Positions 4,238 to 58,239 of a stretch of DNA of 64,000 bases are shown here, piece by piece. Origin of the DNA: an uncultured bacterium (GTDB lineage: Bacteria > Omnitrophota > Gorgyraeia > Duberdicusellales > CBEUCJ01). Position 1 is the first letter of the stretch, and each line of letters begins with the position of its first letter. The stretch covers positions 32,186 to 96,185 of the forward strand of contig CBEUCJ010000003.1 in NCBI GenBank assembly GCA_965541615.1. Direction: 5' to 3'. The position numbers and the translations under genes were made by a program. The notes below the pieces were generated by a model. That model was not told the origin of the DNA. It ran no database searches and saw only the letters and a program-made list of their open reading frames with translations.

Positions 4238-4825
4238 TTAAGAAATAGAATTAGAATTAAGAATTATATCTATCCTTAAAAAAACCTCAGGATTTTGAAG
4301 AGACTTAGGTTGAGTGGGTTTTTCTCTTAATGTGAAACGTATCCTAACACCATTATTTACACCATTAGAGCTAATTGGTACTAATTGAGAATTAGCTGTG
4401 ACTATTTTTGAATCTATAAGTTGAGTATATCCTACAACAGAGCCTGAAAAAGTTGAAGAATAAGGAATTCTGCTCTTCATCCATAAAGAGTTATTCCAAA
4501 TAATAAAATTTGTTCCTGAATTATCATCAGGTTGATAGTTATTGTTAGCATCTTCTCTTACCCACACACCTATTATCTGTCCGCCTGAGTAGATTGGTTT
4601 TATACCTGTATCTAACTTACTGCCACCCACACTTTCTTTAATTTTCTTTGCGATGTTCTCAACGCCATACATACCTTCATTTATTAAAGCTATTCTTTTT
4701 TCTATAATTTTTAATTGAGTCCTCGCAAACAAATCAAAAGCTACAGGGATAGCTATTACTACTCCTAACAACATAGCTGAAATCATTAACTCTACCAATG
4801 TAAGACTTTTTTTTGTCGTCACCAT
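4238..4825 (-). CDS. Minor pilin / pseudopilin (prepilin-type N-terminus)
   Basis: MVTTKKSLTLVELMISAMLLGVVIA. Class III signal with Leu-Thr-Leu-Val-Glu and a hydrophobic helix. 195 aa. Confidence 0.55.
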   Translation of the reverse strand: MVTTKKSLTLVELMISAMLLGVVIAIPVAFDLFARTQLKIIEKRIALINEGMYGVENIAKKIKESVGGSKLDTGIKPIYSGGQIIGVWVREDANNNYQPDDNSGTNFIIWNNSLWMKSRIPYSSTFSGSVVGYTQLIDSKIVTANSQLVPISSNGVNNGVRIRFTLREKPTQPKSLQNPEVFLRIDIILNSNSIS

Positions 4826-5181
4826 GTCACATTAATAGTTACTTTTCTACAGGTAGTGTTTGTAGAAGAGACTGTATAATTGCGTGAATAATTAATATTA
4901 TCTATAACTACATTACCTGCTGTATGCAAACCCAAAGACAAATCTCCTTTACCTGTACTCCACCAATCTTCTCTTACATCATCATATAAACTTTCCAAAA
5001 CTTCTCTTGCCAACTGAGTAGCCTGTAATCTATGTAAAGACCTTAAATTTAATTTTTTTACACTCAATATTGCACTTACCAAACCCACAAATACACTAGC
5101 TGTTATTAAACTCCCCATAAGGACTTCAGTTAAAGTCAATGATTTTTTATTTTTATTAGGGAAGAGGTTCATTTTTTTCAC
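4819..5181 (-). CDS. Minor pilin / pseudopilin
   Basis: NKKSLTLTEVLMGSLITASVFVGL after a 13-aa leader. 4-nt overlap with the neighbouring genes. Confidence 0.5.
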   Translation of the reverse strand: MKKMNLFPNKNKKSLTLTEVLMGSLITASVFVGLVSAILSVKKLNLRSLHRLQATQLAREVLESLYDDVREDWWSTGKGDLSLGLHTAGNVVIDNINYSRNYTVSSTNTTCRKVTINVTW

Positions 5182-5506
5182 TTAGAATATCTTTTGCTGT
5201 TCCTATATATTTAGCTTTAACTTGCCAAGGGTTCTTTACTACTTGAAAATCCCAATTTTCAGAAGAGATATCCAATTTTAATTTTGCATTACAATCTGAA
5301 GTATTACTACATGTTACATAACTCCCTGTCTCCAACTTGCATATTTTCTCAGCTTGCTTAATCAACTCCATTAGGGTATCAGCTTCTCTTTCAATGGAAT
5401 TTACCACAGCTTTTCTGTAAAGAGGAATAGAAATACTTGCTAAGATAATTATGATGAGTATTACTATCATTAATTCTAGTAAAGTAAATGAAACTTTCCT
5501 CTTCAT
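5156..5506 (-). CDS. Type IV prepilin-like protein
   Basis: MKRKVSFTLLELMIVILIIIILASISIPLY. Canonical N-methylation-site motif with Ser at -1 and Glu at +5. Confidence 0.65.
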   Translation of the reverse strand: MKRKVSFTLLELMIVILIIIILASISIPLYRKAVVNSIEREADTLMELIKQAEKICKLETGSYVTCSNTSDCNAKLKLDISSENWDFQVVKNPWQVKAKYIGTAKDILSEKNEPLP

Positions 5507-5508
5507 TT

Positions 5509-5859
5509 TTAATACACTGTAATTAAACCTTCTTTATTTATTTGAACATGCAAATTCTGATAAGGTGATCTTTGTTTGATAGCAGTTACTGTAAAACTAT
5601 TCACATTTCCACTGAAAGTGTAATTCCAATCTTGGTTAGAGGGATTAGAAATATCTAAATCTTGCCATCCTGTTGGAAATGTTTCCTTATCTTCTATGCA
5701 TCTTAAAATAGAGGCTCTGATTTGATGAAGTACTGCTTTGGCAGAAGCTATTAAGGCTTTCTTTAACTGAGTTCTATATATAGAAAAACCTATTCCCACC
5801 AATATAAGAATTATAATTATGGTTACTATAATTTCTATTAAAGTAAAACTCCTCCTCAA
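5509..5859 (-). CDS. Type IV prepilin-like protein
   Basis: MRRSFTLIEIIVTIIIILILVGI. Confidence 0.7.
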   Translation of the reverse strand: MRRSFTLIEIIVTIIIILILVGIGFSIYRTQLKKALIASAKAVLHQIRASILRCIEDKETFPTGWQDLDISNPSNQDWNYTFSGNVNSFTVTAIKQRSPYQNLHVQINKEGLITVY

Positions 5860-6239
5860 AAGCTCTCTACCTTACTTGGCTTTATTTTCATTTTATAGTT
5901 TCTACCACCAGTCTTAGAAGTAGCTATTATCTCGGCAGCGTCAGGATTGGAGGGGTTATTTACCTTATAAGTAAAATGTTTACTTTCAGAAGGGAGTCTT
6001 ATACCTGTGTTCTTTTCTAAAGCATTAAAGTCTGAAGTAAAAAATCCATTCTCAGCATGATAGATAATTTCAGCTTTTCTTATCAGCTCCATCATAGAAG
6101 TCGCCTCTGCTTTTCGAGCTTTTTCTACAGCCTTTTTATACTGAGTTACTCCAAAACTTGCCAATATAGAAATAGTTACTATTACTGTAATTAATTCTAT
6201 AAGAGTAAAGCTATCTCTCTTACAAATTATTTTCATCAA
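5856..6239 (-). CDS. Type IV prepilin-like protein
   Basis: KRDSFTLIELITVIVTISILAS. Confidence 0.7.
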   Translation of the reverse strand: MMKIICKRDSFTLIELITVIVTISILASFGVTQYKKAVEKARKAEATSMMELIRKAEIIYHAENGFFTSDFNALEKNTGIRLPSESKHFTYKVNNPSNPDAAEIIATSKTGGRNYKMKIKPSKVESF

Positions 6240-6657
6240 TGTCCCAAGTATTATTTATATAATTGTAATCTATGACTCGAGCTCCACCTTTTGCTTTGTT
6301 ATTTACATACAGGTGGGAAGAATTAGAGGTATAATTTGCATAATAGTATCTATTTCCATCGCCATATTTTGCTCTAAGACTAACTTTAATATCGGTCTCA
6401 CCATCACTATCTACATCTAAACTTAAAAGTTGAGTAGAAGAGCCATTAAAGCTTTCATTATAATAATTTCCATTTATTTGATAATAAAGTTGCAAAGCTT
6501 TCCCAATCTCTTTTGCTAAATCCATAGCCATAGATTTTCTTGCTCTTAAAACTACTTTGTAATAAGTAGCTACTCCTATTGAAGCTAATATGGCTATGAT
6601 TAAAATAACTGTGATTACTTCTGCTAACGTAAATCCTTTTTTTCTACAAAAAATCAT
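6220..6657 (-). CDS. Type IV prepilin-like protein
   Basis: RKKGFTLAEVITVILIIAILASIG (Gly at -1). Confidence 0.7.
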   Translation of the reverse strand: MIFCRKKGFTLAEVITVILIIAILASIGVATYYKVVLRARKSMAMDLAKEIGKALQLYYQINGNYYNESFNGSSTQLLSLDVDSDGETDIKVSLRAKYGDGNRYYYANYTSNSSHLYVNNKAKGGARVIDYNYINNTWDIDENNL

Positions 6658-7049
6658 TACTTAGGTATTAAAGGATGTGTTCCTCCTATTTGTCCAGTTT
6701 CATTTATTGTCACAGTTTTATTTTCATATCTTCCTCTTCGTCTCGTAGCAGTTGCAATAAAATTACTCGTACTATTCGTAGTAGTAATATTAAAACTCCA
6801 ATCAGTATCATTAACTTTTGCTACTTCGGGCACTTCTTCACTAAGATCAGACAAACTGGTTGTATAATTATCATAAAGAGAATGATAAATGGCTTCTGCC
6901 TTTCTTATCATATCTAATTTAGAAATAGCTGCTGAAACTTTCGCTCTTTCTTGAACTTTTATAAATTGAGGAATAGCTATAGCTGCTAAAATAGCTATGA
7001 TTATAATTACTATTGTCAATTCTGCTAAAGTAAAACTTTTCTTTATCAT
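6657..7049 (-). CDS. Type IV pilin (candidate major subunit)
   Basis: MIKKSFTLAELTIVIIIIAILAAIAIPQF. C-terminus GQIGGTHPLIPK is paralogous to the next gene. Confidence 0.7.
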   Translation of the reverse strand: MIKKSFTLAELTIVIIIIAILAAIAIPQFIKVQERAKVSAAISKLDMIRKAEAIYHSLYDNYTTSLSDLSEEVPEVAKVNDTDWSFNITTTNSTSNFIATATRRRGRYENKTVTINETGQIGGTHPLIPK

Positions 7050-7116
7050 TCTCTAACCTCCTCTTTTAAAACTATGATATTTTTATTATTCCATTTAAAT
7101 ATACCACAAAAAAACA

Positions 7117-7524
7117 TCATCTTAAAGGATGAGTGCCTCCAAATTTTCCAGTCTCATTTATGCTAATAACATAACCTGCATATTCACTTTCACCTATTCT
7201 TTCAGCCTCTGCTAAAAAACTTTTGTCATCAGCATAAACTATAGTATATTTCCAGTCTTCATCGCCCAAAATTTTTTCATTTAATTCAGGAACCTCTTGT
7301 GCCAATTCTTCAAAATCATCTGTATAGGTATCATATATTGAAAAGTACATACTTTCAGCTTTTTTAATAAGATTTAACTTAACTTTTGCAGAGGTAACTT
7401 TTGTTCTCTCTAAGAATTTCTTATATTGAGGTAAAGCTATACTTATTAATATTACAATAGCTACAATTACAATTACTAATTCAATAAGAGTGAAACTTCT
7501 TTTTTTAAAAGAAAATAAATTCAT
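7117..7524 (-). CDS. Type IV pilin (candidate major subunit, paralog of 6657..7049)
   Basis: KKRSFTLIELVIVIVAIVILISIALPQY. C-terminus GKFGGTHPLR. It is the first pilin gene after the platform gene. Confidence 0.7.
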   Translation of the reverse strand: MNLFSFKKRSFTLIELVIVIVAIVILISIALPQYKKFLERTKVTSAKVKLNLIKKAESMYFSIYDTYTDDFEELAQEVPELNEKILGDEDWKYTIVYADDKSFLAEAERIGESEYAGYVISINETGKFGGTHPLR

Positions 7525-8735
7525 TTACCTCCCAAAGTAGCTAACCTAAATATTGGTAAATACATTGCAATTACTAATGTACCTACAAAACCACCAATAA
7601 TTACTATCATTGCAGGCTCAAATAAAGCAATAAACCTTGCAATCTTTGCTTCTATAATTTTGTAATAATACTCTTGTATCTTTTTAAACATACCTGTAAG
7701 ATTCCCAACTTCCTCTCCTATCCTTATCATTTGAACTACCAGAGGTGGAAAATAATCAAACTTTCCTAAAGGTGCGTTTAAAGACTTCCCCTTCCTTACG
7801 CTTTCTTTTACTTCTTTTATTATTCCCTTCAAAACAGTATTTGTAGCTGACCTTTCGCTAATCTCTAGAGAATATACAATTGGAACTCCAGCCTCTAAAA
7901 GTGTAGCTATCTCTGAAGAAAACCTCTCTAAAGAAACTTCTTTTAAAAACGTCCCCAATAAAGGAATTCTTAATGTAATTCTATCAAAGATTTCTTTCCC
8001 TGTAGGTGTCCGAATAAATTTATAAAAGAAAAATAATATCATAGGGATTAATATCAATAATACAAGCCATGCCTTTCCTACAAAACTACTTACTTTAAAA
8101 AGCAACTTAGTCAAGAAAGGTATCTTTATATTGAATTCTGAAAATATTGTTTTAAATTTAGGTGTAATTATTAAGATAAAAAAAGCTACAGCTCCTATTG
8201 CTATAAAAAAGAGTATTGTAGGATATAAGAGTGCTGTTATTATCTTTCTCCTAAATTCTAATTTTTGTTCTAAATAATAAGCTAATCTTTCTAAAACTAA
8301 AGCTAAATTTCCTGAAGCTTCTCCTATTTCTACTAAACCTACCCATAAATCTGAAAATACTTTTGGAAACTTTCTAAGAGCATCTGAAAAACTGCTACCT
8401 TTCTCTACTTCTATCTTTATCCTTTCTACAATCTGTTGCAATTTAAAACTACCTATCTGAAACTTACAAATCTCTAAAGCTTTTACTAAAGTAACTCCTG
8501 CACTTATCATAGTAGCTAACTGATAAGCAAACATTAATAGATCTGTAGCTCTTACAGTTCGATGAGTAAATCTTTTCTTCTCTTTTTTAAAAGAAAGTGC
8601 AAGGGGTGTTATTTTTATAACTATCAATCCTTCCTCTCCAAGTCTTTTTACTAATTCCTCATAAGAATCTGCTTCTTCTATATTAACTACTTTTCTTCCT
8701 TGCTTATCTCTTGCAAAGTATTTGAAAAGTGGCAT
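7521..8735 (-). CDS. Type II secretion / type IV pilus inner-membrane platform protein (GspF/PilC/MshG family)
   Basis: 404 aa. Two T2SSF-like repeats with 3 TM segments. C-terminal ...IFRLATLGGK region is conserved in GspF/PilC. Confidence 0.85.
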   Translation of the reverse strand: MPLFKYFARDKQGRKVVNIEEADSYEELVKRLGEEGLIVIKITPLALSFKKEKKRFTHRTVRATDLLMFAYQLATMISAGVTLVKALEICKFQIGSFKLQQIVERIKIEVEKGSSFSDALRKFPKVFSDLWVGLVEIGEASGNLALVLERLAYYLEQKLEFRRKIITALLYPTILFFIAIGAVAFFILIITPKFKTIFSEFNIKIPFLTKLLFKVSSFVGKAWLVLLILIPMILFFFYKFIRTPTGKEIFDRITLRIPLLGTFLKEVSLERFSSEIATLLEAGVPIVYSLEISERSATNTVLKGIIKEVKESVRKGKSLNAPLGKFDYFPPLVVQMIRIGEEVGNLTGMFKKIQEYYYKIIEAKIARFIALFEPAMIVIIGGFVGTLVIAMYLPIFRLATLGGK

Positions 8736-8746
8736 AATTTAAAATT

Positions 8747-10450
8747 TTACAAAGCTACTCTTAATACCTCTTCTAAGCTTGTTACTCCCTCTTCTACTTT
8801 TTTTATGCCACTTTCTAATAAAGTTCGCATTCCTGCTTTTTTAGCTTCTTCCCTTATAAGATGGATACTTTCATTCTTAGAAATCAACTCTTTCAATGGC
8901 TCATCTACAAATAAAATCTCTGCAATTAAAGTTCTATCTTTATATCCTATATTTTTACATTCTTTGCATCCTTTAGCTTTATAAATTATATCTTTATTTA
9001 TGCTCACTTTCAATTCTTTAAGAATATCTTTCTCAACTTCATAAGGCTGCTTACAGTTAGGACATAGTTTTCTAATTAATCTTTGAGCGACTATACATGT
9101 TAAAGAAGCACTCACCAAATAAGGAGGTAAACCTATATCTATCAATCTAGTTATAGCTGAAGGTGCATCGTTTGTATGCAAAGTAGAAAGAACCAAATGT
9201 CCTGTTAACGATGCTCTAACACAAATTTCTGCTGTCTCTAAATCTCTAATCTCACCTACCATTATGATATCTGGGTCTTGTCTTAAAAAATGTCTTAAAA
9301 CTCTCGCAAAAGTCAATCCTATTTCAGGTTTTACTTGAACTTGATTTATTCCCTCTAATTTATACTCCACTGGATCTTCTACAGTTAAAATATTTTTTTT
9401 AGGAGATTTTATCTCATTTAAAATTGCATATAAAGTAGTGCTTTTCCCAGAACCAGTAGGACCTGTTAATAAAACTAATCCCCATGGAGAAGTAATCACT
9501 TTTCTCAATATTTTCAACTCTTCACTAGTAAACCCTAAGTAAGCTAAATCCAAAGGTACTCTGGACTTATCTAAGATTCTTATAACTACTTTTTCTCCAT
9601 AAATAGTAGGCACTGTTGAAACTCTCAAATCTATTATCTTATCTCCTTTCTTAACACTAAATCCACCATCTTGAGGTAATCTCTTTTCTGCTATATCCAT
9701 CTTAGAGAGAATCTTAATACGAGAAACTATAGGCAAATGCATGTGTTTAGCAGGTGAAGGAATCTCATACAAAACACCATCTATTCTATATCTTATTCTC
9801 AATCTATCAAAAAAGGGTTCAATATGAATGTCTGATGCCCTCTCTTCTATAGCTTCATTTAAGATTAAATCTACTAATCTTACTACCAAAGCCTCTTCTG
9901 CTTTCTCTACTAACTTATCTACACTTAATTCCTCCTGAGGAGGTGTTTCGGTTTTTGTCACCTCTTCTAAATCTACATCATAAGTAGATTCCACTGCTTT
10001 CTTTAAAAAATCTATTTTTCCATAAAATTCCTCAATAGATTTCAATATGTCTGACTTTGTAGAGACTACCAGATTTATTTGGCAACCAGTTAATTTCTTT
10101 AAATTATCTATTAAATCAAGATCTAAAGGATCTGAAATAGCACATGTAAGAGTATCTCCTTCTTTATTTAATGGTAAAACTAAATTTTTAACCGCTTCTT
10201 CTTTTGGAATTAACTCTTCCAATTTTTGATGAGGGTTGGGTTTTAAAAGGCCTGAAGAATAGGAAAGAAAAGGAAGATGTAGCTGTTCACTTAAAGCTCT
10301 CGCTAAATCCTCTTCTTTAATTATACCTTTTTTTATTAAAATTTCTCCTAATCTACCTCCCTCTTTCTTTTGAATCTCCAAAGCTTCTTTTAAGTTCTTT
10401 TCTGAAATTAACCCTTTTCTAATTAAAATTTCTCCTATTTTATCTTTCAT
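8747..10450 (-). CDS. GspE/PilB/MshE-family assembly ATPase with tandem MshEN c-di-GMP-binding motifs and C-terminal tetracysteine
   Basis: Walker A GPTGSGKST. Asp box and His box (LSTLHTND). CPNC...CKEC zinc motif. N-terminus KIGEILIRKGLISEKNLKEALEIQ-KKEGG-RLGEILIKKGIIKEEDLARALSEQ. Confidence 0.9.
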   Translation of the reverse strand: MKDKIGEILIRKGLISEKNLKEALEIQKKEGGRLGEILIKKGIIKEEDLARALSEQLHLPFLSYSSGLLKPNPHQKLEELIPKEEAVKNLVLPLNKEGDTLTCAISDPLDLDLIDNLKKLTGCQINLVVSTKSDILKSIEEFYGKIDFLKKAVESTYDVDLEEVTKTETPPQEELSVDKLVEKAEEALVVRLVDLILNEAIEERASDIHIEPFFDRLRIRYRIDGVLYEIPSPAKHMHLPIVSRIKILSKMDIAEKRLPQDGGFSVKKGDKIIDLRVSTVPTIYGEKVVIRILDKSRVPLDLAYLGFTSEELKILRKVITSPWGLVLLTGPTGSGKSTTLYAILNEIKSPKKNILTVEDPVEYKLEGINQVQVKPEIGLTFARVLRHFLRQDPDIIMVGEIRDLETAEICVRASLTGHLVLSTLHTNDAPSAITRLIDIGLPPYLVSASLTCIVAQRLIRKLCPNCKQPYEVEKDILKELKVSINKDIIYKAKGCKECKNIGYKDRTLIAEILFVDEPLKELISKNESIHLIREEAKKAGMRTLLESGIKKVEEGVTSLEEVLRVAL

Positions 10451-11928
10451 CTTTCAAATCTTTTTAAAGCTTCTTTTATAGCTCTCTCTTTCTCTCCTAA
10501 AGATTGTTCTCTCTGAAGAGCGAAAGTAAATTTTCTTTGAAATAATTTTGGCCACATTATCTTAGGAGTAATGAAAACTAACAACTCTCTCTCCTTTTTT
10601 TCTTTCTCTTTATGTCTAAATAAACTTCCTATCAGAGGTAAGTCTCCTAATAATGGTAAATGAGTTACTTTTTCCTCTACTTTATTTCTAATCAATCCAC
10701 TTAACACAACTGTCTCACCATCTTTTACTGTTAAAACAGACTTAAAGATCCTTTTTTCTGGATCTTTAAGTGTCTGAACACTTTCTTGAGTAGTTAAAGT
10801 AATAGGGGAAACTACTGCTTCAGAGACTGTGGGTACAATTATCATAGTAATCTCACCTGTCTCCAAATTCACTTGAGGAGTAACTCTTAAAGTAACTCCT
10901 GTCTCTGTTCTCTCAGGCTCTTCACTAACAGCCTCTTCAGTAATAGTAACTTTCTTTCCAATTGCTTCATTTCGAATAATCTTAATTTCTGCTGTCTCAT
11001 TACTTAAAGTTAAAATTCTAGGTCTAGCTAAAAATTTAGTGCTCGCATCTTTCCTAATAAAATCCAACATCATAGAAAAATTTGCAAATGAAACTTCTCC
11101 TAATGTAGGTTTTCCTGCTTCTACTCCTTTCATTAATCTTGAAGGAAAGGGGAAATGGGTGTATCTGGCCGGTCCTTTAAATGTAAAAATAGTCTCTCCA
11201 TAATTAAATCCTAATTTATCTAAAAGTTCTTTAGAAACATCTAAAATTTCAGCCTCTATCATCACCTGAGGAACAGGTGTATCTAACTCTTTTATTAACT
11301 TCTCTATCGCTGGAAATCTGGCTGGTCTATCAGTAATAATCAAACTATTTGTCCGAGGATCTTCTACCAATTTACCTACATCAGATAAAAGACCTGTAAT
11401 TGCTTCCTTTAAAGCTACATATCTACTCTCTTCACCACCTTCACTACTTTCTCCTCCCTCACTTTCTTCGCTTTCGCCTTCTTCCTCTTCACCTAACTGA
11501 GAGTTTATCTCTGCATCTAATTTGGAATTTGAAACTCTAGTATACTTTAATCTGTAAACTTTAGTAATAGTCTCTACTTCTGGTTTTCCTAATTCTTTTA
11601 CAATGAAAATATTGCTTTCAGGAAGAAACTCATAAGTAAGGTTATTAGCTTTCAATAAAGAATCAAAAGCTTCTTTTAAAGTGACATTTTCAAAATAGCA
11701 AGTAATTTTTCTTTTTCTAATATTCTCTGGACATATAAAGTTAAGTCCCACCTGTTGAGATAATGCTTTTAGAACATCTATTAAATCAGCACCCTCAAAA
11801 TCCATTGAAACTCTCTTTGAAGGATCTGTTAATAAATACTCTGCATAATATTTGTTGTTAATACCTGCATAACCAAAGTTAAAGTTTAAGAATAAGCTTC
11901 CTATAATAATTATTAAAAAACATCTCAT
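10447..11928 (-). CDS. Secretin (PilQ/GspD/MshL family)
   Basis: N-terminal STN-like DFEGADLIDVLKALSQQVGLNFI. C-terminal secretin core ...LLVFITPKI. Signal peptide present. Acidic low-complexity insert EEEEGESEESEGGESSEGGEE. Confidence 0.85.
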   Translation of the reverse strand: MRCFLIIIIGSLFLNFNFGYAGINNKYYAEYLLTDPSKRVSMDFEGADLIDVLKALSQQVGLNFICPENIRKRKITCYFENVTLKEAFDSLLKANNLTYEFLPESNIFIVKELGKPEVETITKVYRLKYTRVSNSKLDAEINSQLGEEEEGESEESEGGESSEGGEESRYVALKEAITGLLSDVGKLVEDPRTNSLIITDRPARFPAIEKLIKELDTPVPQVMIEAEILDVSKELLDKLGFNYGETIFTFKGPARYTHFPFPSRLMKGVEAGKPTLGEVSFANFSMMLDFIRKDASTKFLARPRILTLSNETAEIKIIRNEAIGKKVTITEEAVSEEPERTETGVTLRVTPQVNLETGEITMIIVPTVSEAVVSPITLTTQESVQTLKDPEKRIFKSVLTVKDGETVVLSGLIRNKVEEKVTHLPLLGDLPLIGSLFRHKEKEKKERELLVFITPKIMWPKLFQRKFTFALQREQSLGEKERAIKEALKRFER

Positions 11929-14250: not shown

Positions 14251-14280
14251 TGCAAAATCTATTTTTTCTACATTAGTTAA

Positions 14281-14309
14281 GTTTAATCTCTATTTTTTTA
14301 GTTGTCAAT
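14281..14309 (-). promoter_or_regulatory. Candidate sigma70 promoter for the pilM-N fusion operon
   Basis: Minus strand reads TTGACA (revcomp of 14304-14309), 17/18-nt spacer, TTAAAC/TAAACT, about 30 nt upstream of the start at 14250. Confidence 0.3.
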
Positions 14310-14399
14310 AAAATGATTTAAGATAAAAGTAGATAATGAAAGTAAAAATAGTTAAAAAAGATTCAAAAGAGATTTTTTTTAAAAAAATAGTTTAAAACT

Positions 14400-24682: not shown

Positions 24683-24685
24683 AGC

Positions 24686-42972: not shown

Positions 42973-43003
42973 CTTTTACACCTCCTTTTTATTACAACAA
43001 ATC

Positions 43004-43366: not shown

Positions 43367-43370
43367 TCAT

Positions 43371-45619: not shown

Positions 45620-45620
45620 A

Positions 45621-50458: not shown

Positions 50459-50507
50459 AATTATTTTATCTTAATCTTTTTTTAAATTCAATTTTCACAA
50501 AAGCTAT

Positions 50508-51962
50508 TTATTCTAATTTAATCTCTCTCAAATTGAGTTTAAACTTTCTGGGAGGGTAAGTTATAATGTTGCTTTGATAAGCTAAAAGCCTTCCTTCTTT
50601 TTCTTGATTTATTACTCTCGCTGTAACAAAAATTAACAATTCAGATTTCTCATTAGGATCTACACTCTTATGGGTAAAGAAAAATCCCAATAAAGGTAAG
50701 TCTCCTAAAATAGGAACTTTATGAACGGATTTAGTCTTCTTTGTTTCTATTAATCCTCCAATAACAATCGTTTGACCATCTTTTATTACAACTTCTGTTT
50801 CAGCATAGCGTTCACTCATAACAGGATAATCAAAGCCTAACGCTCCAAAAGTTACTTTATCTACATAATTTGTAACTTTGGGTTTTAACTTTAGTTTTAT
50901 ATAATAATCATCGCCTATCTTGCTTATCTGTGGAGTTACAGTTAAACTCACTCCTTCTATTTTCTCCTCGAAACCAATGATTTGATATTGTCCTGTTTCA
51001 GAATTATATTCAAATTGAGGGATTGGTCTTGTTTTGCCTATATAAATTTCTGCTTCTTTATTGTTCATCGTTACTACTCGAGGAGATGAGATTAGTTTAG
51101 AATCTGTTTTAGCCATAAGAAAATTTAGCACACTTCTAAATTCATTGAAACTTAACGTTCCAAACAAAAACTTTCCTCTAACAATTTCATCAACGCTACT
51201 TGTAGTTACTCTTTCCGTATCATCCCCTTTTACATAAGGAAAACTGTAAGGATATCCTGAAGGAAACGCATCTCCTGTAGCTGGAGGAAATATATTCTTC
51301 ATCCACTTTTTTTCTCCCTTAGGTTCAAAGGGTAAAGTCGTTGGTCTAGCTGCTCCACTAACACTCATGGTTACATTCCAATCGATTCCTAATTTCTCTA
51401 TTGTTCCTAAAGAAGTTTCAATGAATCTTGCTTCAATTAAAACTTGAGGGGTAAGGTTATCTAATTTAGGAATTATCTTTCCTATTTTCTCAAGTACTTG
51501 TGGCACATCTGTAACGATTAGCGAATTTGAACGAACATCTGCTTCAATTGAACCTTGAGAAGAAAGCATCTTTTTCAAAACTTCTTTCAATTTAGAAGCA
51601 TCTGCATTATTTAATTTAAACACTCTTGTATAACTTCCTTCTTTTTCAGCCTCTTCAGGGGTAGTAATTTTGTAAATGTTGCCTTTTTTTGTATAAACAT
51701 AACCATTAGTAGTCACTATTGCATCTAAAGCTTGTTCAACAGTCACATTTTGAAGCTGAACAGTAACGAGTCCTTTTACAGATTGAGAAAAGATAATATT
51801 TAAATTGTATTGCTTGGCTATCTGTCTTAAAACATCTTTAATATCTACTTCTCTAAACTCCAAATACTTTATAATTTGAGATGGTTCTTCAGAATACAAA
51901 AAATTAAAACACCAAAATAATAAGATAAAAAGTATACACTTTTTTCCAATTAATTTTTTCAC
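50508..51962 (-). CDS. Secretin (second copy, MshL/PilQ-like)
   Basis: STN-like FREVDIKDVLRQIAKQYNLNIIF. C-terminal ...LLIFVTARVI. Signal peptide. Confidence 0.85.
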   Translation of the reverse strand: MKKLIGKKCILFILLFWCFNFLYSEEPSQIIKYLEFREVDIKDVLRQIAKQYNLNIIFSQSVKGLVTVQLQNVTVEQALDAIVTTNGYVYTKKGNIYKITTPEEAEKEGSYTRVFKLNNADASKLKEVLKKMLSSQGSIEADVRSNSLIVTDVPQVLEKIGKIIPKLDNLTPQVLIEARFIETSLGTIEKLGIDWNVTMSVSGAARPTTLPFEPKGEKKWMKNIFPPATGDAFPSGYPYSFPYVKGDDTERVTTSSVDEIVRGKFLFGTLSFNEFRSVLNFLMAKTDSKLISSPRVVTMNNKEAEIYIGKTRPIPQFEYNSETGQYQIIGFEEKIEGVSLTVTPQISKIGDDYYIKLKLKPKVTNYVDKVTFGALGFDYPVMSERYAETEVVIKDGQTIVIGGLIETKKTKSVHKVPILGDLPLLGFFFTHKSVDPNEKSELLIFVTARVINQEKEGRLLAYQSNIITYPPRKFKLNLREIKLE

Positions 51963-51997
51963 ATTACTTATTATACTAAAAATCTGTTTTTTTAAAA

Positions 51998-52471
51998 CTA
52001 TTTTAACTCCTCTTCTGGTAAGACCAAATAAAACTTTTCACTTCCCTTTTCTAAAAGTACTTTCTTTTTTGTTATCTCTATTACTCTAAATCCTTCTATG
52101 ACATCACCTACAGTAACTATTGAATCATTAATAAAAGCATATCCTTTTTTATCTTTTCCTATAGAGATTCCTTTCAAGACTAAATTTACAGCTCTATGGA
52201 TTTCTCTATCAGAGACAGGATAAAAAGGATCTCTTCCCCAATCTAACTCTGCTCTTTTTTTCTGAAGAGAAAGCATTTTTGAAGAAATCTCTCTTTCAGA
52301 AATCGATCTTCTTTTTATAGACAAAGAAATTTTAGGTCTTACTTTAACTGCTGCAGGTTTGGGAGGGATAGTTTTCCTTCTCCTTTTGGGTTTTAAATTA
52401 TTTATTAATAAAACTACAAAGACTACAACCAAAATAGCTGTAATTATATATTCAGCAGTCTTTTTATTCAT
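51998..52471 (-). CDS. PilP/MshK-like protein
   Basis: N-terminal TM, basic linker, C-terminal GISIGKDKKGYAFINDSIVTVGDVIEGFRVIEI beta-domain. Confidence 0.45.
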   Translation of the reverse strand: MNKKTAEYIITAILVVVFVVLLINNLKPKRRRKTIPPKPAAVKVRPKISLSIKRRSISEREISSKMLSLQKKRAELDWGRDPFYPVSDREIHRAVNLVLKGISIGKDKKGYAFINDSIVTVGDVIEGFRVIEITKKKVLLEKGSEKFYLVLPEEELK

Positions 52472-53092
52472 TTATATCTTCCATACTTTATAACTACTAA
52501 TCAGTAAAGTAGCTATTATCTTGTTTTCTGGAGTCTGTTTACTCTTAGATCTTTTTGTTTTTCTCTCTCCTGTAGAGAATTCTTCTACTTCAGGCTTTTC
52601 TATAGAAAGAGTCTCTATCGTTAAAAGGATTGGTAATTCTTCTAAAGCTTTAAGATATTCTCCTAAAACTTTATAAGGAGCTTTAAGTACTACTTCTATA
52701 TAAAATTTACTTACACCTTGAGGTAATTCTTTTTCTTCAAAAGGAACTTCTGAAACAGGTTTTATAGAAATAATCTCTATGTTAAGTTCACTACTTTTTT
52801 TTGTTAGTTCTCTGATTATCTTGGGGAGTTCCCTGTCAGAAGCTGATTTACTTTTAAAATCCTTCATTTTTTTGTGAAGCTCTTCTATCTTTTTCTTAGG
52901 GTTGGGGACTTCTTTTACCAAGGATTCCATTTGTTCCAACTCTTTTTGAAGTTTTCCTAATTCTTCCTTTTCTTTATTCAACTTTTTAATAGCTGGTCTT
53001 CCTAAGAAAAGATGTGCAAGAATAAGTATAAAAAGGTAGATACAAATATCTATAAATACTCTTACTATTCTGTTTTCTATCCTTCTTATCAT
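52472..53092 (-). CDS. PilO/MshJ-like protein
   Basis: N-terminal TM, then coiled-coil (EKEELGKLQKELEQMESL), then a small domain. Confidence 0.4.
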   Translation of the reverse strand: MIRRIENRIVRVFIDICIYLFILILAHLFLGRPAIKKLNKEKEELGKLQKELEQMESLVKEVPNPKKKIEELHKKMKDFKSKSASDRELPKIIRELTKKSSELNIEIISIKPVSEVPFEEKELPQGVSKFYIEVVLKAPYKVLGEYLKALEELPILLTIETLSIEKPEVEEFSTGERKTKRSKSKQTPENKIIATLLISSYKVWKI

Positions 53093-53093
53093 T

Positions 53094-54851
53094 TCAATAC
53101 ACTATTTCACAGATTATTTCAAAATTTGCTTTAGGAATAGGAGAATACATATCTCTTTCACTCGAGATAAGACGCACATTTGTAAAAAAAGGAGATTCAT
53201 CAAGATTTAAAGTATACTGAGAGATAGCTAAATCCAAATTAGTATATTGAGTGGCGACTTCTCCAATTATAGTTAACTCTTTTAAACCTTTACGAGAGAC
53301 TATCTCTAATCTATGCAGAGTTATCTCTTTAGGAGTAATATTACTCAATTCTTTTAGAATTGCCCACCATAGAGGTTGTCTTCCAACAGCTCTTTTTAAT
53401 AAACTCTCTCTTTCTGCAAGAGTTTTTTTAAGTAAAAGATATTCTTTTATTTCTTTTACTAAAGGTGTCAAAGACCTTATTTGATTTTCCATTCTTTTAG
53501 CTACACCTTTATAAAGTAAAGCTCTACCATAAGAAAATGCATAAAATCCTAAAAGGATAGTAAAGATTAAAGGAAATGTTATCCTTGCTAAAAACATTAA
53601 AAATAAAGCTTTCTGTTCTAATTTTTCTTTAGGAGGAACCAGATTCAATCTACCGCCTTTATCTATACAAACTCCAAAAACAGAGGCTAAGTGAGGAGCT
53701 GCTTCTTCCATTATAAGTTCTTGTCTAAATACACCTACATCAAACCATCCTTTAGCTATTTTTAAAGGATTCAATTTTTCTATTTTCTTTATGGGTAGGT
53801 TACTTAAATTAGCAGAAAAAAATTCTTTTATATTTTTCATGCGAGAACCTCCACCTGTGAGATAAAAAACATCTAAGCTTTCGACTTTGTAGGTTCTAAA
53901 ATAAAAAGCCATAGTACGTGAAACTTCAGTAATCATCCTTTCTAATAAAGGCCTTAAAACACCTGCTATCTGACTTCCTTTTATTACTCCAAAATCTGTA
54001 TAGAAATCTGTCCCTGCTTCTTCCAAAGGAATCCCACATTCTCTTTTAAAGACCTCTGCATCTTCAATAGTAACATCTTTATTTAAATCTGATAAAACTC
54101 TCATTATCGCATGAGTAAATTGATCAGCTCCAATAGGTATCTGATGATTAAATTGCAAAAGTCTGCCTTTATAAAAATTCAGAGAACTTTCTTTAGCTCC
54201 TATATCTAAAACTGCTATGTATTGAGTTTCTTTTTCAAAACTACCTACCAGATTTCCCAAAGCATCAGGAATAACGTTTATTACTACTGGCCTTAAATTA
54301 AATTTTTTTAAAAAATTTAAATATTCTTCCAAAACAAGATTATCTACTGCAATACAGGTAACCTGAGCAAAATTTCCTTTTTCAGTTTCAAACTTGTGCG
54401 TTATAAAATAGTCAAAAGTTATATTTTTAAAATTTACTTGAAAAGGTAACCTTTTTTTAAGCTCTATACTTACAGCTCCTCTCAAGTCCTTTTCTGAGAC
54501 AAAAGGTAAAATAAATGAAAAGATAAAAATTCCCCTTCCTTGAACAACTAACCTTCCTAGATGAGATTTTATTCTTGTCTGAAAAAGGAATTCTTTAATA
54601 AATCTTTCTATAAATTCTCTTCTTTTATTAAAATCATCTTTTATATTAAAAGGAATGCCTCTTACTCTATAATCACTTATTAAATATCCTTTTTGAACTT
54701 TTTGAAATTGAGCTATCTTTACATAACTATATCCAATATCTATTCCTACAGATGTACGTGTAGATAAGAAGAAATTTTTAAATGAGACTAATAATTGCTT
54801 TAAGTTAACTCTTGTCTTTGCCTCTAAAGAAGGTTTTGAAGAAGGTTTCAT
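53094..54851 (-). CDS. PilM-PilN fusion (MshI-like), 585 aa
   Basis: VGIDIGYSYVKIAQF actin-like start. Internal TM ALFLMFLARITFPLIFTILLGFYAF, then a PilN-like tail. Confidence 0.6.
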   Translation of the reverse strand: MKPSSKPSLEAKTRVNLKQLLVSFKNFFLSTRTSVGIDIGYSYVKIAQFQKVQKGYLISDYRVRGIPFNIKDDFNKRREFIERFIKEFLFQTRIKSHLGRLVVQGRGIFIFSFILPFVSEKDLRGAVSIELKKRLPFQVNFKNITFDYFITHKFETEKGNFAQVTCIAVDNLVLEEYLNFLKKFNLRPVVINVIPDALGNLVGSFEKETQYIAVLDIGAKESSLNFYKGRLLQFNHQIPIGADQFTHAIMRVLSDLNKDVTIEDAEVFKRECGIPLEEAGTDFYTDFGVIKGSQIAGVLRPLLERMITEVSRTMAFYFRTYKVESLDVFYLTGGGSRMKNIKEFFSANLSNLPIKKIEKLNPLKIAKGWFDVGVFRQELIMEEAAPHLASVFGVCIDKGGRLNLVPPKEKLEQKALFLMFLARITFPLIFTILLGFYAFSYGRALLYKGVAKRMENQIRSLTPLVKEIKEYLLLKKTLAERESLLKRAVGRQPLWWAILKELSNITPKEITLHRLEIVSRKGLKELTIIGEVATQYTNLDLAISQYTLNLDESPFFTNVRLISSERDMYSPIPKANFEIICEIVY

Positions 54852-54861
54852 CTAAATTAAT

Positions 54862-55209
54862 TCAATATTCTTCTATTTCTTTTAAATATTGTAATATAAA
54901 TAATAATATTTTTAACTCTTTTTCAACATCTAAATCCCTGAATTCTACCCCTGTAAAATAACCTGTGTTATCTGCTTTCTTTTGCCAAATGACCCTTCCT
55001 ACACATTCTATTTGAGTCTTCTCTTTATCTGGCAAATAAAATTTTAAAAGTAACAAAGTGCCTACTTTTAATTCATCTTTAGTTAAAAAGCACAATCCAT
55101 TTCTACTTATATTTTTAGTTCTACTTTTGAATACAGAATTTAAAGGAAGAATTTGATATTCTACTTCAGTACAAATATCTACTCTTAAAAACTTTCTATG
55201 GTCTTGCAT
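54862..55209 (-). CDS. PilZ domain protein
   Basis: RKFLRVDI. NISRNGLCF. GVEF. Confidence 0.65.
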   Translation of the reverse strand: MQDHRKFLRVDICTEVEYQILPLNSVFKSRTKNISRNGLCFLTKDELKVGTLLLLKFYLPDKEKTQIECVGRVIWQKKADNTGYFTGVEFRDLDVEKELKILLFILQYLKEIEEY

Positions 55210-55291
55210 TCTAAAAGTATTATATTATACTACCTTAACATTGTAAATTTAATTAATATCCGGAGAGGAAATTAGAAGAACTTACAAAGTG

Positions 55292-56233
55292 TTATTTTTT
55301 CCGTTCTTTATATTCCTCCCATTCAAGGGGAACTACTTCTTTTATTTTCTCTTCATTCTCAATAATTCTTTTACAAATTAAGTCTTTGATTACCTTTTCA
55401 GAATAAAAAATATCTGCCAATTTCATTCTAATATAGACTATTTTGCTCTCAAAAAGTAAAGCTCCAAAAATTTGAACTCTATGAATTGTAGGTTTAGGAG
55501 GCTCGGATGGAGGAATTGGTTTTTTAAATTTTTTAATTTTCTCAAACTCTTTTTTAACTTTAAGTGGTTGGATAGGAACTAATGATTTTTTCCCTCTCAA
55601 ATCTATTCTTATATACTTCACATCTGAAATTATAATCCCATACCATTTAGCATTATCTTCCATTAGGAGTCTTTGAGAACCTACTTTTTTAGTCTTAGTA
55701 GGTTCACCTGTTAATATCAAAACTCCATACCCTTTAAAGTCACCTTTTAAAGTTAACTTTGCCTTATCTACTACTACTATCTTTGGATCATCAAAACTCC
55801 CAATACTACCACCATTATAGGTAGTGTCTTTTGTAATCGTAATATCTGCATATTTTTGTAAGACTTCTAATACATCTCTTTTAAGAGAAATGTAAGGAGA
55901 CTTTTGCTTTGGAGGGTTACCTTCTACTTTTACTCTGCGAATTCTAATCTTTGCTTCATTAAAGACTACTCCTGCTGTACCTTTACCAATTACTTTTCCC
56001 TCTAAATCATGGTTCTTTCCACTGATTACACTTAAAGGAAGGTCTAATCCTTTAACTTTTAAGTAACCTATTTTTACATCCTCAGGTAACATATAGGTTA
56101 AAGCTCCTATCTCTTCTTTTAGGATTTTGCTAGATTTTGGCTCACCTCTCATAGAGACTATCTTTTCTTGGGCATTTAAGACGATAGGAAAAAATAAAAC
56201 GATTATTATAATTCCTATTATTATTTTTCTCAT
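55292..56233 (-). CDS. Secreted hypothetical protein (313 aa)
   Basis: Signal peptide MRKIIIGIIIIVLFFPIVLNA. No recognisable motif. Confidence 0.4.
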   Translation of the reverse strand: MRKIIIGIIIIVLFFPIVLNAQEKIVSMRGEPKSSKILKEEIGALTYMLPEDVKIGYLKVKGLDLPLSVISGKNHDLEGKVIGKGTAGVVFNEAKIRIRRVKVEGNPPKQKSPYISLKRDVLEVLQKYADITITKDTTYNGGSIGSFDDPKIVVVDKAKLTLKGDFKGYGVLILTGEPTKTKKVGSQRLLMEDNAKWYGIIISDVKYIRIDLRGKKSLVPIQPLKVKKEFEKIKKFKKPIPPSEPPKPTIHRVQIFGALLFESKIVYIRMKLADIFYSEKVIKDLICKRIIENEEKIKEVVPLEWEEYKERKK

Positions 56234-56296
56234 AATTCACCTCCTTATTTAAGCTCCCATTTACAACTATAACATATATTTTCAAAGAAAACAAGA

Positions 56297-56749
56297 TTAG
56301 TCTTGAGTAAGTTTTATCATTTCCTCTAAATAAGCTTCTACTTTAAGAGTAGGGTTGTTTTTTGTTCCAGAGACGTAAATTCTGTAATATGCTCTTTTCC
56401 CGCCAGGAGGGATCGTAATATTTTCTTCTAAATAACATTTATCACAGTTGGGGTCTGTATAACTACAACTGCAACCAGCAGGACATGTGCATTTATCACA
56501 TACAGGTGCACAATATAAAGGACAATTTGCCCAAGGCCTCCAAGGATGAGAACTACCTTCTTTATCTCTCATTAATTCTTTTCCTCTCTCTATTCCTGAA
56601 TCACTTATAAATTCTACTAAACTTTTATAATAATATAAAGGTGAAGTCTCAAGATAAATTGAGTTAAGGTTTGTAAGATAAACACCTATCAATGCTAAGA
56701 TTAATATTATTAAGATTACAATTATAAGAGTTATTCCCTTCTTATTCAT
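56297..56749 (-). CDS. PilX/GspK-like minor pseudopilin with cysteine-rich insert
   Basis: MNKKGITLIIVILIILILALIGVYL. CPLYCAPVCDKCTCPAGCSCSYTDPNCDKCY (10 Cys). Confidence 0.5.
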   Translation of the reverse strand: MNKKGITLIIVILIILILALIGVYLTNLNSIYLETSPLYYYKSLVEFISDSGIERGKELMRDKEGSSHPWRPWANCPLYCAPVCDKCTCPAGCSCSYTDPNCDKCYLEENITIPPGGKRAYYRIYVSGTKNNPTLKVEAYLEEMIKLTQD

Positions 56750-57230
56750 ACAAATTTCTTGGACAAACTACTGTAAAAAAGTTTATTCGTTGGCCTGCTC
56801 TTTCCAAAGTTAAATTTACTCTTATCTTTCTAATTTGTCTCCTCTTAGCAGAATTAAGAGGTAAAGGACCTAAAACCTGATTTCTTTCATCAAAATATGT
56901 AAATTCCAAAGTCTCAACATCTTCACATAAAGGATAACCATTTCTATTAATAACATCTCCTACTAAAGCAAATTCTATTGTATTATCATCAGAATCTGTG
57001 AAAGTTAATTGATCTGAATCTGCTACAGATATACTAAATTCATCTTTAATTTTTTTAATGTCTGATGCCATCCAATCCAAAGTTTTTTTAGCTTGATATG
57101 CTATATCATTACGAATATCTATAAATCTATATGTATCTAAAAGCTGATTCATAAAACTACTCAATCCAATAATAGTTATTCCTACTAATACGATAACTGT
57201 GATTATCTCTATTAAAGTAAAACCTTTCAT
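56742..57230 (-). CDS. Type IV prepilin-like protein
   Basis: MKGFTLIEIITVIVLVGITIIGLS. Confidence 0.65.
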   Translation of the reverse strand: MKGFTLIEIITVIVLVGITIIGLSSFMNQLLDTYRFIDIRNDIAYQAKKTLDWMASDIKKIKDEFSISVADSDQLTFTDSDDNTIEFALVGDVINRNGYPLCEDVETLEFTYFDERNQVLGPLPLNSAKRRQIRKIRVNLTLERAGQRINFFTVVCPRNLYE

Positions 57231-57739
57231 TTAGGAGTATGTCCTTTAGAAACTACACAAGAAAAGTATATTTCTCCAATTACTCTATGAGAAACAGTTA
57301 TATCTACTCTCTTATAATCTAAAGTGTTCTGTGTATCAGATTTGTAGCAATCTAAAGAATTTAATTGAGGACCATTTAAACAACCTGATGGTGATGAATC
57401 AGGATCTATGTAATGGACCTGAACACTCCTTTGATAACCTTTTATAGTATCTGTATAACCATCAAAATCATCTATATCATCATAATCTGAAACAGAGCTC
57501 TCACCTGGATCTGGCCCTAACACATCACTCCAAGGAGGCGTCTTTCTTTCATCAAATCTTTTACATAAAATCTCTTCCATCAAATCTCTTCCTACTACGA
57601 TTGCCTGATAATAACTCTCACCTTCAATTGCTTTATGAGTAACATCTGAGATCATTATTATAAGAGGTGGAACTCCTATAGCAAAAGTAACTATCACAGC
57701 TATTACTTCTATTAAGGTAAGTCCTTTTTTGAATCTCAT
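57227..57739 (-). CDS. Type IV prepilin-like protein
   Basis: KKGLTLIEVIAVIVTFAIGV. Confidence 0.6.
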   Translation of the reverse strand: MRFKKGLTLIEVIAVIVTFAIGVPPLIIMISDVTHKAIEGESYYQAIVVGRDLMEEILCKRFDERKTPPWSDVLGPDPGESSVSDYDDIDDFDGYTDTIKGYQRSVQVHYIDPDSSPSGCLNGPQLNSLDCYKSDTQNTLDYKRVDITVSHRVIGEIYFSCVVSKGHTPK

Positions 57740-58239
57740 TCTACATTTATTTTACCAGTGTAAGGAGTAATTTTTATTGTAACCTGATTTCCTTGATACT
57801 CTAAAGTTATATTCCCTTCATTAGTTAAATTTTGACCTGTAGCTGTTTGAGGAGTACCTTTCCAGTTAAATCTTAAAATCTGAGTACCACCTATATCTAC
57901 ATTTTGAATCTCTATCCCTCTGTATTGATTATGGGTATCAAAATCTATTTCTAAAGGAAGTTTGGTAAAAGGGTCTAAAAGACTACTATTATCTGAAACT
58001 CTATATACTCTGTAAGTATTTTGAGTAGTATTAAACTCAATAGCGTAATCTGTTTTGGTGGTAATAGCTACTGTTTGAGTGTATCTTATATCTGAAATTA
58101 ATTTTTTTGCTGCAGATTGCAATTTCATATCATAGAATACATTGAACTTTGGTATAGATAAAAGAGCTAAAATCCCTATTATAGAGATTGTCATTATGAA
58201 TTCTATTAAAGTATAACTTTTAATTGTTATTCTCACCAC
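57736..58239 (-). CDS. Prepilin-like protein (FimT/GspH-like position)
   Basis: IKSYTLIEFIMTISIIGILALLSIP. Confidence 0.5.
   Translation of the reverse strand: MVRITIKSYTLIEFIMTISIIGILALLSIPKFNVFYDMKLQSAAKKLISDIRYTQTVAITTKTDYAIEFNTTQNTYRVYRVSDNSSLLDPFTKLPLEIDFDTHNQYRGIEIQNVDIGGTQILRFNWKGTPQTATGQNLTNEGNITLEYQGNQVTIKITPYTGKINVE

Follow-up and report, generated by a model that had tools for sequence, protein, structure and literature searches.

The Omnitrophota, which are uncultured and mostly ultra-small, are suspected of an attached or predatory life on other cells, and their genomes offer few candidate contact organelles, type IV pili being one of them. The window analysed here, a 64-kb stretch of contig CBEUCJ010000003.1 from an Omnitrophota genome (GCA_965541615.1), carries two sets of type IV pilus genes, termed cluster 1 and cluster 2. 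This raises the question of which filament system each set encodes and whether the two are functionally specialised. We compared the genes with each other, with family models and reference systems, and with syntenic loci from other Omnitrophota. The results indicate that both clusters are probably type IVa-like machines conserved across the phylum, and that cyclic diguanylate (c-di-GMP) may be wired into them differently. Type IVa pili in Omnitrophota have already been published; the comparative picture adds detail and holds no mechanistic surprise.

Two paralogous clusters with a common core order

The window has a GC content of about 29%, and all but two of its 69 open reading frames (ORFs) of at least 100 amino acids (aa) lie on the minus strand. 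The pilus genes listed below are all intact minus-strand ORFs. Neighbours in a cluster share bases or lie fewer than about 80 bp apart, as expected of operons. The core order is the same in both (PilM-PilN fusion, PilO, PilP, secretin, ATPase, platform), with the pilin genes 3' of the core in cluster 1 and 5' of it in cluster 2. An Rfam scan of the window returned tRNA only and no c-di-GMP riboswitch, and promoter-like and terminator-like matches were no commoner than chance.

Cluster 1 spans positions 4238-14711, with its upstream edge probably at 14908. In the order of transcription, its genes are:

14708-14908, minus strand: DUF2582 winged-helix protein, 66 aa, a possible regulator (Pfam PF10771, 48.2 bits)
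14400-14711, minus strand: candidate K/X-type minor pilin, 103 aa, with a PilX/GspK-like hydrophobic N-terminus lacking Glu5 (PilX_N 16.8 and GspK 20.7 bits, sub-threshold)
12796-14250, minus strand: PilM-PilN fusion, 484 aa (Pfam PilN 30.3 bits, C-terminal)
12284-12805, minus strand: PilO-like protein, 173 aa (T2SSM_b 19.6 bits, below cut-off; one orthologue has a Pfam PilO match)
11925-12287, minus strand: PilP-like protein, 120 aa (hhalign to the cluster-2 family and conserved position; no Pfam or NCBIfam match)
10447-11928, minus strand: secretin, 493 aa (Pfam Secretin 130 and Secretin_N 50.6 bits; STN 26.8 bits, under its cut-off of 28.4)
8747-10450, minus strand: PilB-type assembly ATPase, 567 aa (T2SSE 465 and MshEN 64 bits)
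7521-8735, minus strand: GspF/PilC-family platform protein, 404 aa (Pfam T2SSF 197 bits, two repeats)
5156-7524, minus strand: six small prepilins, major-pilin/GspG-like, at 7117-7524, 6657-7049, 6220-6657, 5856-6239, 5509-5859 and 5156-5506 (N_methyl; class III signal motif with Glu5); 48% identity between the first two
4819-5181, minus strand: minor pilin, 120 aa (cleavage motif and Glu5)
4238-4825, minus strand: minor pilin, 195 aa (cleavage motif and Glu5)

Cluster 2 spans positions 41378-58239, and its genes are:

57736-58239, minus strand: minor pilin, GspH/ComGD-like, first of a set of four at 56297-58239 with weak GspH, ComGD, PilV and N_methyl matches
57227-57739, minus strand: minor pilin, PilV-like
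56742-57230, minus strand: minor pilin
56297-56749, minus strand: minor pilin, K/X-like, without Glu5
55292-56233, minus strand: signal-peptide protein, 313 aa, with no family match and a homologue only in a sister genome
54862-55209, minus strand: PilZ-domain protein (Pfam PilZ 55.6 bits; RKFLR and NISRNG motifs)
53094-54851, minus strand: PilM-PilN fusion, 585 aa (PilM_2 71.6 and PilN 28.1 bits)
52472-53092, minus strand: PilO, 206 aa (Pfam PilO 31.2 bits)
51998-52471, minus strand: PilP-like protein, 157 aa (position; hhalign to the cluster-1 family; CdsD_C 29.4 bits)
50508-51962, minus strand: secretin, 484 aa (Pfam Secretin 141 bits, Secretin_N, STN and N0)
48884-50458, minus strand: membrane-anchored coiled-coil protein, 524 aa (only coiled-coil-type matches)
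48259-48900, minus strand: small tetratricopeptide repeat (TPR) protein, 213 aa, carrying a signal peptide (TPR_1 67.7 bits, plus further TPR models)
46464-48266, minus strand: PilB-type assembly ATPase, 600 aa (T2SSE 475 and MshEN 65 bits)
45621-46463, minus strand: ExeA/MshM-like AAA_22 ATPase, 280 aa (AAA_22 70.3 bits; TIGR03015 202 bits, below its cut-off of 324.5)
44354-45619, minus strand: GspF/PilC-family platform protein, 421 aa (T2SSF 185 bits)
43558-44364, minus strand: histidine kinase (Pfam HisKA/HATPase_c)
43004-43366, minus strand: PilZ protein (Pfam PilZ 48.1 bits)
42196-42753, minus strand: response regulator (Pfam Response_reg 84.9 bits)
41378-42199, minus strand: MshEN-PilZ protein (MshEN 61.5 and PilZ 37.1 bits)

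A first-pass annotation of this DNA had described two paralogous type IV pilus clusters with a common core order, and the intact ORFs together with Pfam, BLASTP and hhalign agree with it. Pfam matches and motifs likewise confirmed that each cluster has a secretin, an ATPase with CxxC motifs, a GspF-family platform, a PilM-PilN fusion and prepilins; Walker A and two CxxC motifs are present in each assembly ATPase. The AAA_22, TPR and coiled-coil matches bear out its description of the three genes added in cluster 2. Its gene list stood, while its cluster extents proved too narrow: cluster 1 reaches at least 14711, and cluster 2 reaches 41378, since the window contains all of the tail genes (histidine kinase, PilZ, response regulator and MshEN-PilZ) that recur 3' of the platform gene in relatives. 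The cluster-2 TPR protein also scored 33.9 bits with PilW and 24.7 bits with Tgl, each under the cut-off, and is a candidate secretin pilotin or accessory factor.

The pairwise comparison of paralogues that the annotation had proposed gave BLASTP matches for three core pairs: 46.2% identity over 556 aa for the ATPases, 30.8% over 425 aa for the platforms and 27.3% over 513 aa for the secretins. The PilM-PilN, PilO-like and PilP-like pairs had no BLASTP match between clusters and were linked by profiles only, with hhalign of the orthologue profiles giving probabilities of 99.7%, 98.2% and 97.4%, respectively; the PilM-PilN match was approximately full length (cluster-1 residues 4-484). The identities of the cluster-1 PilO and of both PilP-like proteins come from profile comparison only. 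These links across six core genes indicate that the clusters are true paralogues, but old ones.

Type IVa-like machines

The type IVa assignment is based on architecture, fold and a small neighbour-joining tree. Both clusters have the core parts of the type IVa pilus of Myxococcus xanthus, Geobacter, Pseudomonas and Thermus. PilM was recognised in cluster 2 by PF11104 and Foldseek, and in cluster 1 by hhalign and by orthologues carrying PilM_2; PilN, PilO, PilP and a secretin were found in both clusters, with the PilQ subfamily cut-off missed. In cluster 2, PilM_2 (PF11104), PilN and PilO all exceeded the Pfam cut-offs (27, 22.8 and 22 bits, respectively), and Pfam PilM_2 and PilO matched in cluster 2 only, with no match in the cluster-1 fusion or PilO-like protein themselves.

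We then considered a type II secretion system (T2SS), or a T2SS-like pseudopilus that exports proteins, as the identity of one cluster; cluster 2 is the likelier candidate. Cluster 2 has H-I-J-K-like minor pilins and no long-fibre pilin, weak GspH, GspM, GspC and GspK matches occur, and an ExeA-like ATPase is a known T2SS accessory. Its degenerate MshEN domain resembles that of Xanthomonas XpsE, which lost c-di-GMP binding through changes in key residues (PMC5013675), and giant genes of Omnitrophota have secretion and pilus genes at their flanks (bioRxiv 10.64898/2026.06.07.730766). The GspE, GspF and GspD models also nearly match the PilB, PilC and PilQ scores. TIGR02538 (PilB) gave 628.8 bits for the cluster-1 ATPase and 596.4 for the cluster-2 ATPase (cut-off 675.65), against 605 and 596 for GspE (cut-off 630); on the secretins, GspD gave 202 and 255 bits (cut-off 351) and PilQ 189 and 238 (cut-off 284).

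The N-termini and the tree point away from a T2SS. Despite missing its cut-off, the PilB model was the best-scoring one for both ATPases and aligned over the full length, covering the complete N-terminal MshEN domain that both possess, whereas the GspE model starts at residue 81-85. The best full-length ATPase matches in the PDB were PilB/PilF, at 461-518 bits. The neighbour-joining tree, built on 379 columns of the ATPase core with 100 bootstraps and rooted with E. coli YggR, recovered each of the two families as monophyletic at 100% bootstrap, and both fell outside the clade of two proteobacterial GspE references (90%). The references in this tree are GspE and PilB-like sequences, with no MSH (full-length MshE), type IVb or Com sequence among them; tblastn of plasmids for reference ATPases recovered GspE and PilB-like sequences and no MshE.

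The PilM-PilN, PilO/PilP-like and pilin proteins point the same way. An AlphaFold2 model of the cluster-2 PilM-PilN fusion (mean predicted local distance difference test score, pLDDT, 79.7) showed an actin-like domain, a long membrane/coiled-coil helix and a ferredoxin-like PilN core. Its best Foldseek matches were type IVa PilM from Pseudomonas, Myxococcus and Thermus (target-normalised TM-score 0.76-0.81), followed by FtsA, and no GspL/EpsL chain was among the 50 best. Pfam scans of both PilM-PilN and PilO/PilP-like proteins found no GspL- or GspC-type family. GspM (23 bits) and GspC (17 bits) were far below their NCBIfam cut-offs, as were GspH, GspK and GspG (at most 37 bits against 89), and cluster 2 has no GspG-type major pseudopilin. 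Thus neither the GspL/GspM/GspC platform nor GspE, GspD or GspG equivalogs were found. The first-pass annotation had named a firm placement of one set with T2SS as grounds for rejecting its own view; with the ATPases outside the GspE clade and a PilM domain that matches type IVa PilM and not GspL, no such placement was obtained, and we consider a T2SS quite improbable.

The first-pass annotation had called the clusters MSHA-like (mannose-sensitive hemagglutinin) and cluster 2 a full MSHA-type system. Read in this way, cluster 2 would be a complete MSH system (MshI-J-K-L-M-N-E-G) and cluster 1 a reduced one. In gene order and sizes, cluster 1 would resemble the Vibrio operon, mshIJKL-EG and then pilins. 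As in Vibrio cholerae MSHA, each cluster forms a single locus, PilM and PilN are fused as in MshI, the cluster-1 ATPase carries the c-di-GMP-binding MshEN motif, cluster 2 has ExeA-like AAA_22 and TPR accessories, and the loci contain no prepilin peptidase gene, as in MSH (PMC6668835). However, the MshL equivalog TIGR02519 gave only 120.5 (cluster 1) and 118.9 bits (cluster 2), with a cut-off of 250.2, and the same secretins scored higher with GspD and PilQ. The N-termini of the two ATPases appear to have more in common with PilB of type IVa pili than with Vibrio MshE: in a comparison covering the N-terminal domain of MshE (PDB 5HTL), this domain scored 61.7 bits with cluster 1 and 35.7 with cluster 2, against 87.6 and 62.4 for Myxococcus/Geobacter PilB. 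The MshEN motif is also present in Myxococcus type IVa PilB (PMC11656802), as in the cluster-1 ATPase; because the domain is widespread in PilB and occurs in other ATPases, it is not diagnostic of MSH.

The MSH model of Denise et al. 2019 (PMC6668835) requires both MshA and MshM. Cluster 2 lacks an MshA-type or other major pilin, and cluster 1 has pilins but no MshM-like gene. Of the 24 orthologous cluster-2 loci, only 13 have the ExeA/MshM-like gene and the other 11 do not, so that it is dispensable there; the gene order also differs, with the M-like gene between E and G and not after L. Genes resembling MshO, MshP or MshQ were not recognised. The rejection of the MSHA label is strong but not final, and we regard an MSHA-type identity of the clusters as very unlikely. 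For annotation, a PilM-PilN fusion, an MshEN domain or an ExeA-like gene is insufficient for calling a locus 'MSHA'.

The window clusters also depart from the type IVa pilus of the model species. A single protein combines PilM and PilN, the secretins are short at 484-493 aa and had no AMIN-domain match in the Pfam scan, and the core genes form one operon per cluster instead of several loci. Cluster 2 adds the coiled-coil, TPR and ExeA-like genes between secretin and platform. Among curated NCBIfam families, the best relative of both PilM-PilN fusions was the PilM-like Amuc_1101 of Akkermansia muciniphila (E=1e-16 for cluster 1, 2e-29 for cluster 2), and both secretins matched the Amuc_1098 family, though they scored far higher with GspD and PilQ; scores with the Akkermansia families were 61 and 103 against a cut-off of 650, and 76 and 98 against a cut-off of 750. 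Akkermansia and Omnitrophota share the Planctomycetes-Verrucomicrobia-Chlamydiae superphylum. The Akkermansia cluster Amuc_1098-1102 encodes a long PilM-like protein, small periplasmic proteins and a secretin (PMC10688800); unlike the window clusters, the five-gene cluster as described has no ATPase, platform or pilin genes.

Using TXSScan, Seymour et al. 2023 reported type IVa pili in nearly all Omnitrophota, with 'at least one copy', and treated them as attachment organelles in a host-dependent lifestyle (PMC10066038). The window clusters belong to the same families; F-type ATPase genes, which that study reports beside many of its type IVa loci, are not present in the window. In a literature search that was not exhaustive, we found no description of two conserved Omnitrophota pilus types or of differing c-di-GMP receptors, and the same holds for Seymour et al. 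as far as consulted.

Conservation across Omnitrophota and c-di-GMP inputs

Comparative loci were annotated with profiles seeded from the window proteins, on ORFs called by a simple longest-ORF procedure. Homologues of the cluster-2 PilM-PilN protein at 40-80% identity came almost entirely from organisms named Omnitrophota or Omnitrophica. An alignment-based scan of one genome per GTDB species yielded 41 syntenic cluster-2 loci, most titled Omnitrophota and a few with placeholder names such as 'uncultured Planctomycetia'. Orthologues of the cluster-1 ATPase were 61-86% identical to it, against 46% for the paralogue in the same genome, and a metagenome scan with the cluster-1 PilM-PilN protein retrieved 80 loci of at least 242 matches. 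A word-based PilM-PilN search had returned only two matches, suggesting that cluster 1 is rare; the ATPase family and the metagenome loci overturned this.

All six core genes of cluster 1 were present in 31 loci, and the order MN-O-P-Q-E-F was contiguous in 30 of them. The PilX/GspK-like protein (about 110-160 aa) preceded cluster 1 in 44/44 loci and the DUF2582 gene lay 5' of PilM-PilN in 39/44. Most of the 16 loci with enough downstream sequence had 4-5 pilin genes 3' of the platform, and orthologues of the two window minor pilins were the last two pilin genes in most loci. In cluster 2, the gap between secretin and ATPase contained a long ORF and a TPR gene in 27/27 loci, and the four-gene minor-pilin set lay 5' of the core in 22/27. 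Behind the platform, a histidine kinase was found in 13/24 loci, often with PilZ and response regulator genes, and an MshEN-PilZ protein in 7/24. The sister genome GCA_053996315.1 has both clusters in identical gene order, with PilM-PilN proteins 80% identical in cluster 2 and only 57% in cluster 1. These phylum-wide syntenic orthologues of each cluster indicate an old conserved pair, not a local duplication.

One relative (locus L022, about positions 1-8000) has a partial third set of pilin-like, platform-like and second PilM-PilN-like genes directly 5' of cluster 2, so some Omnitrophota have more than two such systems.

We next compared the c-di-GMP motifs of the two ATPase families. Wang et al. 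2016 defined the MshEN motif as two 24-residue units with a 5-residue spacer and gave a relaxed search pattern (PMC5013675). The results showed that this pattern matches the cluster-1 ATPase twice (residues 4-27 and 33-56, 5-residue spacer) and matches neither the cluster-2 ATPase nor the MshEN-PilZ protein. With the c-di-GMP motif model NF053729 (cut-off 38), the cluster-1 ATPase scored 72.9 bits, and the cluster-2 ATPase (34.5 bits) and the MshEN-PilZ protein (33.6 bits) were both under the cut-off. The difference holds across the families: the key Gly, Arg, Leu and Gln are more than 90% conserved in 141 distinct cluster-1-type N-termini, and the signature R/G/G/Q residues are missing in 27/27 cluster-2-type N-termini, which share the sequence ...KKLKRPLEKVI.DM.LL... 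instead. All three PilZ domains of cluster 2 carry the RxxxR and (D/N)xSxxG motifs, and each exceeded the Pfam PilZ cut-off. The motif score and matches, with the prepilin motifs, agree with the earlier claim of eight pilins and the best MshEN motif for cluster 1.

Functional specialisation of the clusters, which the first-pass annotation had proposed, is plausible given the consistent difference in this motif between the two ATPase families. In cluster 1, c-di-GMP would bind the intact MshEN domain of the motor and switch filament assembly on, a direct gating suggested by analogy with Vibrio MshE and Myxococcus PilB, for which it has been demonstrated. In cluster 2, c-di-GMP and other signals would arrive in trans through the three PilZ proteins and the kinase/regulator pair, so that its sequence features suggest indirect c-di-GMP control.

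Several points weigh against the type IVa-like, differently wired pair. No NCBIfam equivalog cut-off was reached (PilB, PilQ, PilM, PilC), and the placement of the ATPases with PilB-like sequences was weakly supported (36-62% bootstrap). PilT/PilU and PilD are absent from the window, as the first-pass annotation had stated: a six-frame search of the 64 kb found no PilT-like ATPase, and Peptidase_A24 (prepilin peptidase) had no match among the ORFs scanned against Pfam; pilus retraction and prepilin processing are thus putative. The comparative loci rest on the simple ORF calling described above, and direct evidence of the two clusters sharing a genome comes only from the window and a single sister genome. 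Nor does the missing canonical motif prove that the cluster-2 ATPase has lost c-di-GMP binding. On balance, we consider the type IVa-like reading probable for both clusters.

Pilin supply, neighbouring genes and possible roles

The clusters differ in pilin content, with eight prepilin genes in cluster 1 and four in cluster 2. The window and the sister genome reached eight by expansion of the small major-type pilins, of which relatives have only 1-3 genes, against six in the window. No major-type pilin was found beside cluster 2 in 27 loci. Cluster 1 is a self-contained operon with its own major-type and minor pilins, and cluster 2 a core with a four-gene minor-pilin (tip/initiation) set and secretin-side accessories, namely the coiled-coil membrane protein, the small TPR protein and, in about half of the lineages, the ExeA-like ATPase. 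Cluster 2 may polymerise a pilin encoded elsewhere, possibly surplus cluster-1 pilin.

Alternatively, the two loci could form one functional system in which cluster 2 relies on cluster 1 for pilins and perhaps other parts. Canonical type IVa pili are likewise split over loci, both clusters lie within 64 kb here and occur together in the sister genome, and cluster 2 never has a major pilin where cluster 1 has 1-6 major-type ones. Yet each locus has a full ATPase, platform, PilM-PilN, PilO, PilP, secretin and minor-pilin set, which would be redundant; the two families are separate lineages throughout the sampled phylum, each with 100% bootstrap; and a cluster-2 major pilin could lie outside the window. 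A single system therefore appears unlikely to us.

Among the prepilins at 4238-7524 and 56742-58239, nine of the eleven with a cleavage motif have Ser at position -1 (e.g. KKRS|FTLIE) instead of the near-universal Gly; in orthologous prepilins of other Omnitrophota this residue is mostly Gly or Ala. The specificity of the prepilin peptidase may therefore have changed in this lineage.

In relatives, the length of the fourth cluster-2 minor pilin is 360-729 aa, with conservation confined to the N-terminal ~40 residues. In the window and the sister genome it is a 150-aa gene followed by the separate 313-aa signal-peptide gene, which occupies the slot of the variable C-terminal part. A hidden Markov model of the long proteins matched only the N-terminal ~40 residues of the window 150-aa protein and did not match the 313-aa protein. 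The fourth minor pilin may be a hypervariable tip or adhesin module.

Directly 5' of the cluster-2 PilM-PilN gene, most relatives have a ~90-aa signal-peptide/coiled-coil ORF ending in ...LDQVLSNQ.KIL.ELDIVKVRA(S/T)R (e.g. L020, 4642-4911); this ORF was not found in the window, where, as in the sister genome, a PilZ gene (54862-55209) replaces it. Several distant relatives have ComFB-CheR fusion genes just 5' of cluster 2 (L002, 4398-6591; L135, 4159-5244). ComFB is a c-di-NMP receptor family, and the Omnitrophota ComFB-CheR architecture has been mentioned (PMC12448109). No ComFB-CheR gene lies directly 5' of cluster 2 in the window, where the following genes are found:

58251-58664: DUF123 gene, shared with the sister genome and directly 5' of the first cluster-2 pilin
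58672-58743, minus strand: tRNA gene, 5' of DUF123
58751-63949: trehalose synthesis genes (glycosyltransferase family 20, trehalose phosphatase, TreT-like, DUF5752), syntenic in the sister genome

Around cluster 1, relatives have a ~60-80-aa ORF directly 5' of PilM-PilN, with HTH_17 in the three Pfam-annotated loci L003, L005 and L006. The window has at this position a 149-bp gap without an ORF (14251-14399), and the candidate HTH_17 regulator appears to have been lost. Upstream, at 14963-21941, lie genes for UvrA, an 804-aa TPR protein, ExbB, ExbD, a 174-aa protein and a Zn-ribbon protein; this block is syntenic phylum-wide, with ExbB-ExbD missing in some lineages. The ~27 kb between the clusters (14.9-41.4 kb) carries ExbBD, UvrA, cell-envelope, pantothenate/folate, and lysine and arginine biosynthesis genes and apparently belongs to neither pilus system. 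At the other end of cluster 1 is one further gene, in whose place the sister genome has 94- and 119-aa genes without Pfam annotation:

3678-4232: dual-specificity/tyrosine-phosphatase-like protein with a lipoprotein-type signal peptide, 5 bp past the last cluster-1 pilin gene

Finally, we considered what two such machines could do. Under a tentative scenario, to which we give only a small chance, both have been kept since early Omnitrophota history, cluster 1 as a c-di-GMP-gated fibre pilus and cluster 2 as a short-stalk contact device. Cluster 2 would then make no fibre of its own pilin and would instead present the large, hypervariable K/X-type tip protein (the 360-729-aa form of relatives, split in the window into the 150-aa and 313-aa genes) on a short stalk. 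The lineage-specific secretin module of coiled-coil, TPR and ExeA-like proteins would stabilise it, and control would come from the PilZ proteins, the two-component pair and, in relatives, ComFB-CheR.

The Omnitrophota literature suggests attachment to surfaces or host cells as the role of these pili. Two separately conserved machines with differing c-di-GMP inputs offer defined targets: the two ATPase N-terminal domains, the three PilZ proteins and the variable tip protein. If the short-stalk scenario were true, cluster 2 would serve to recognise or contact hosts in the proposed epibiotic or predatory lifestyle.

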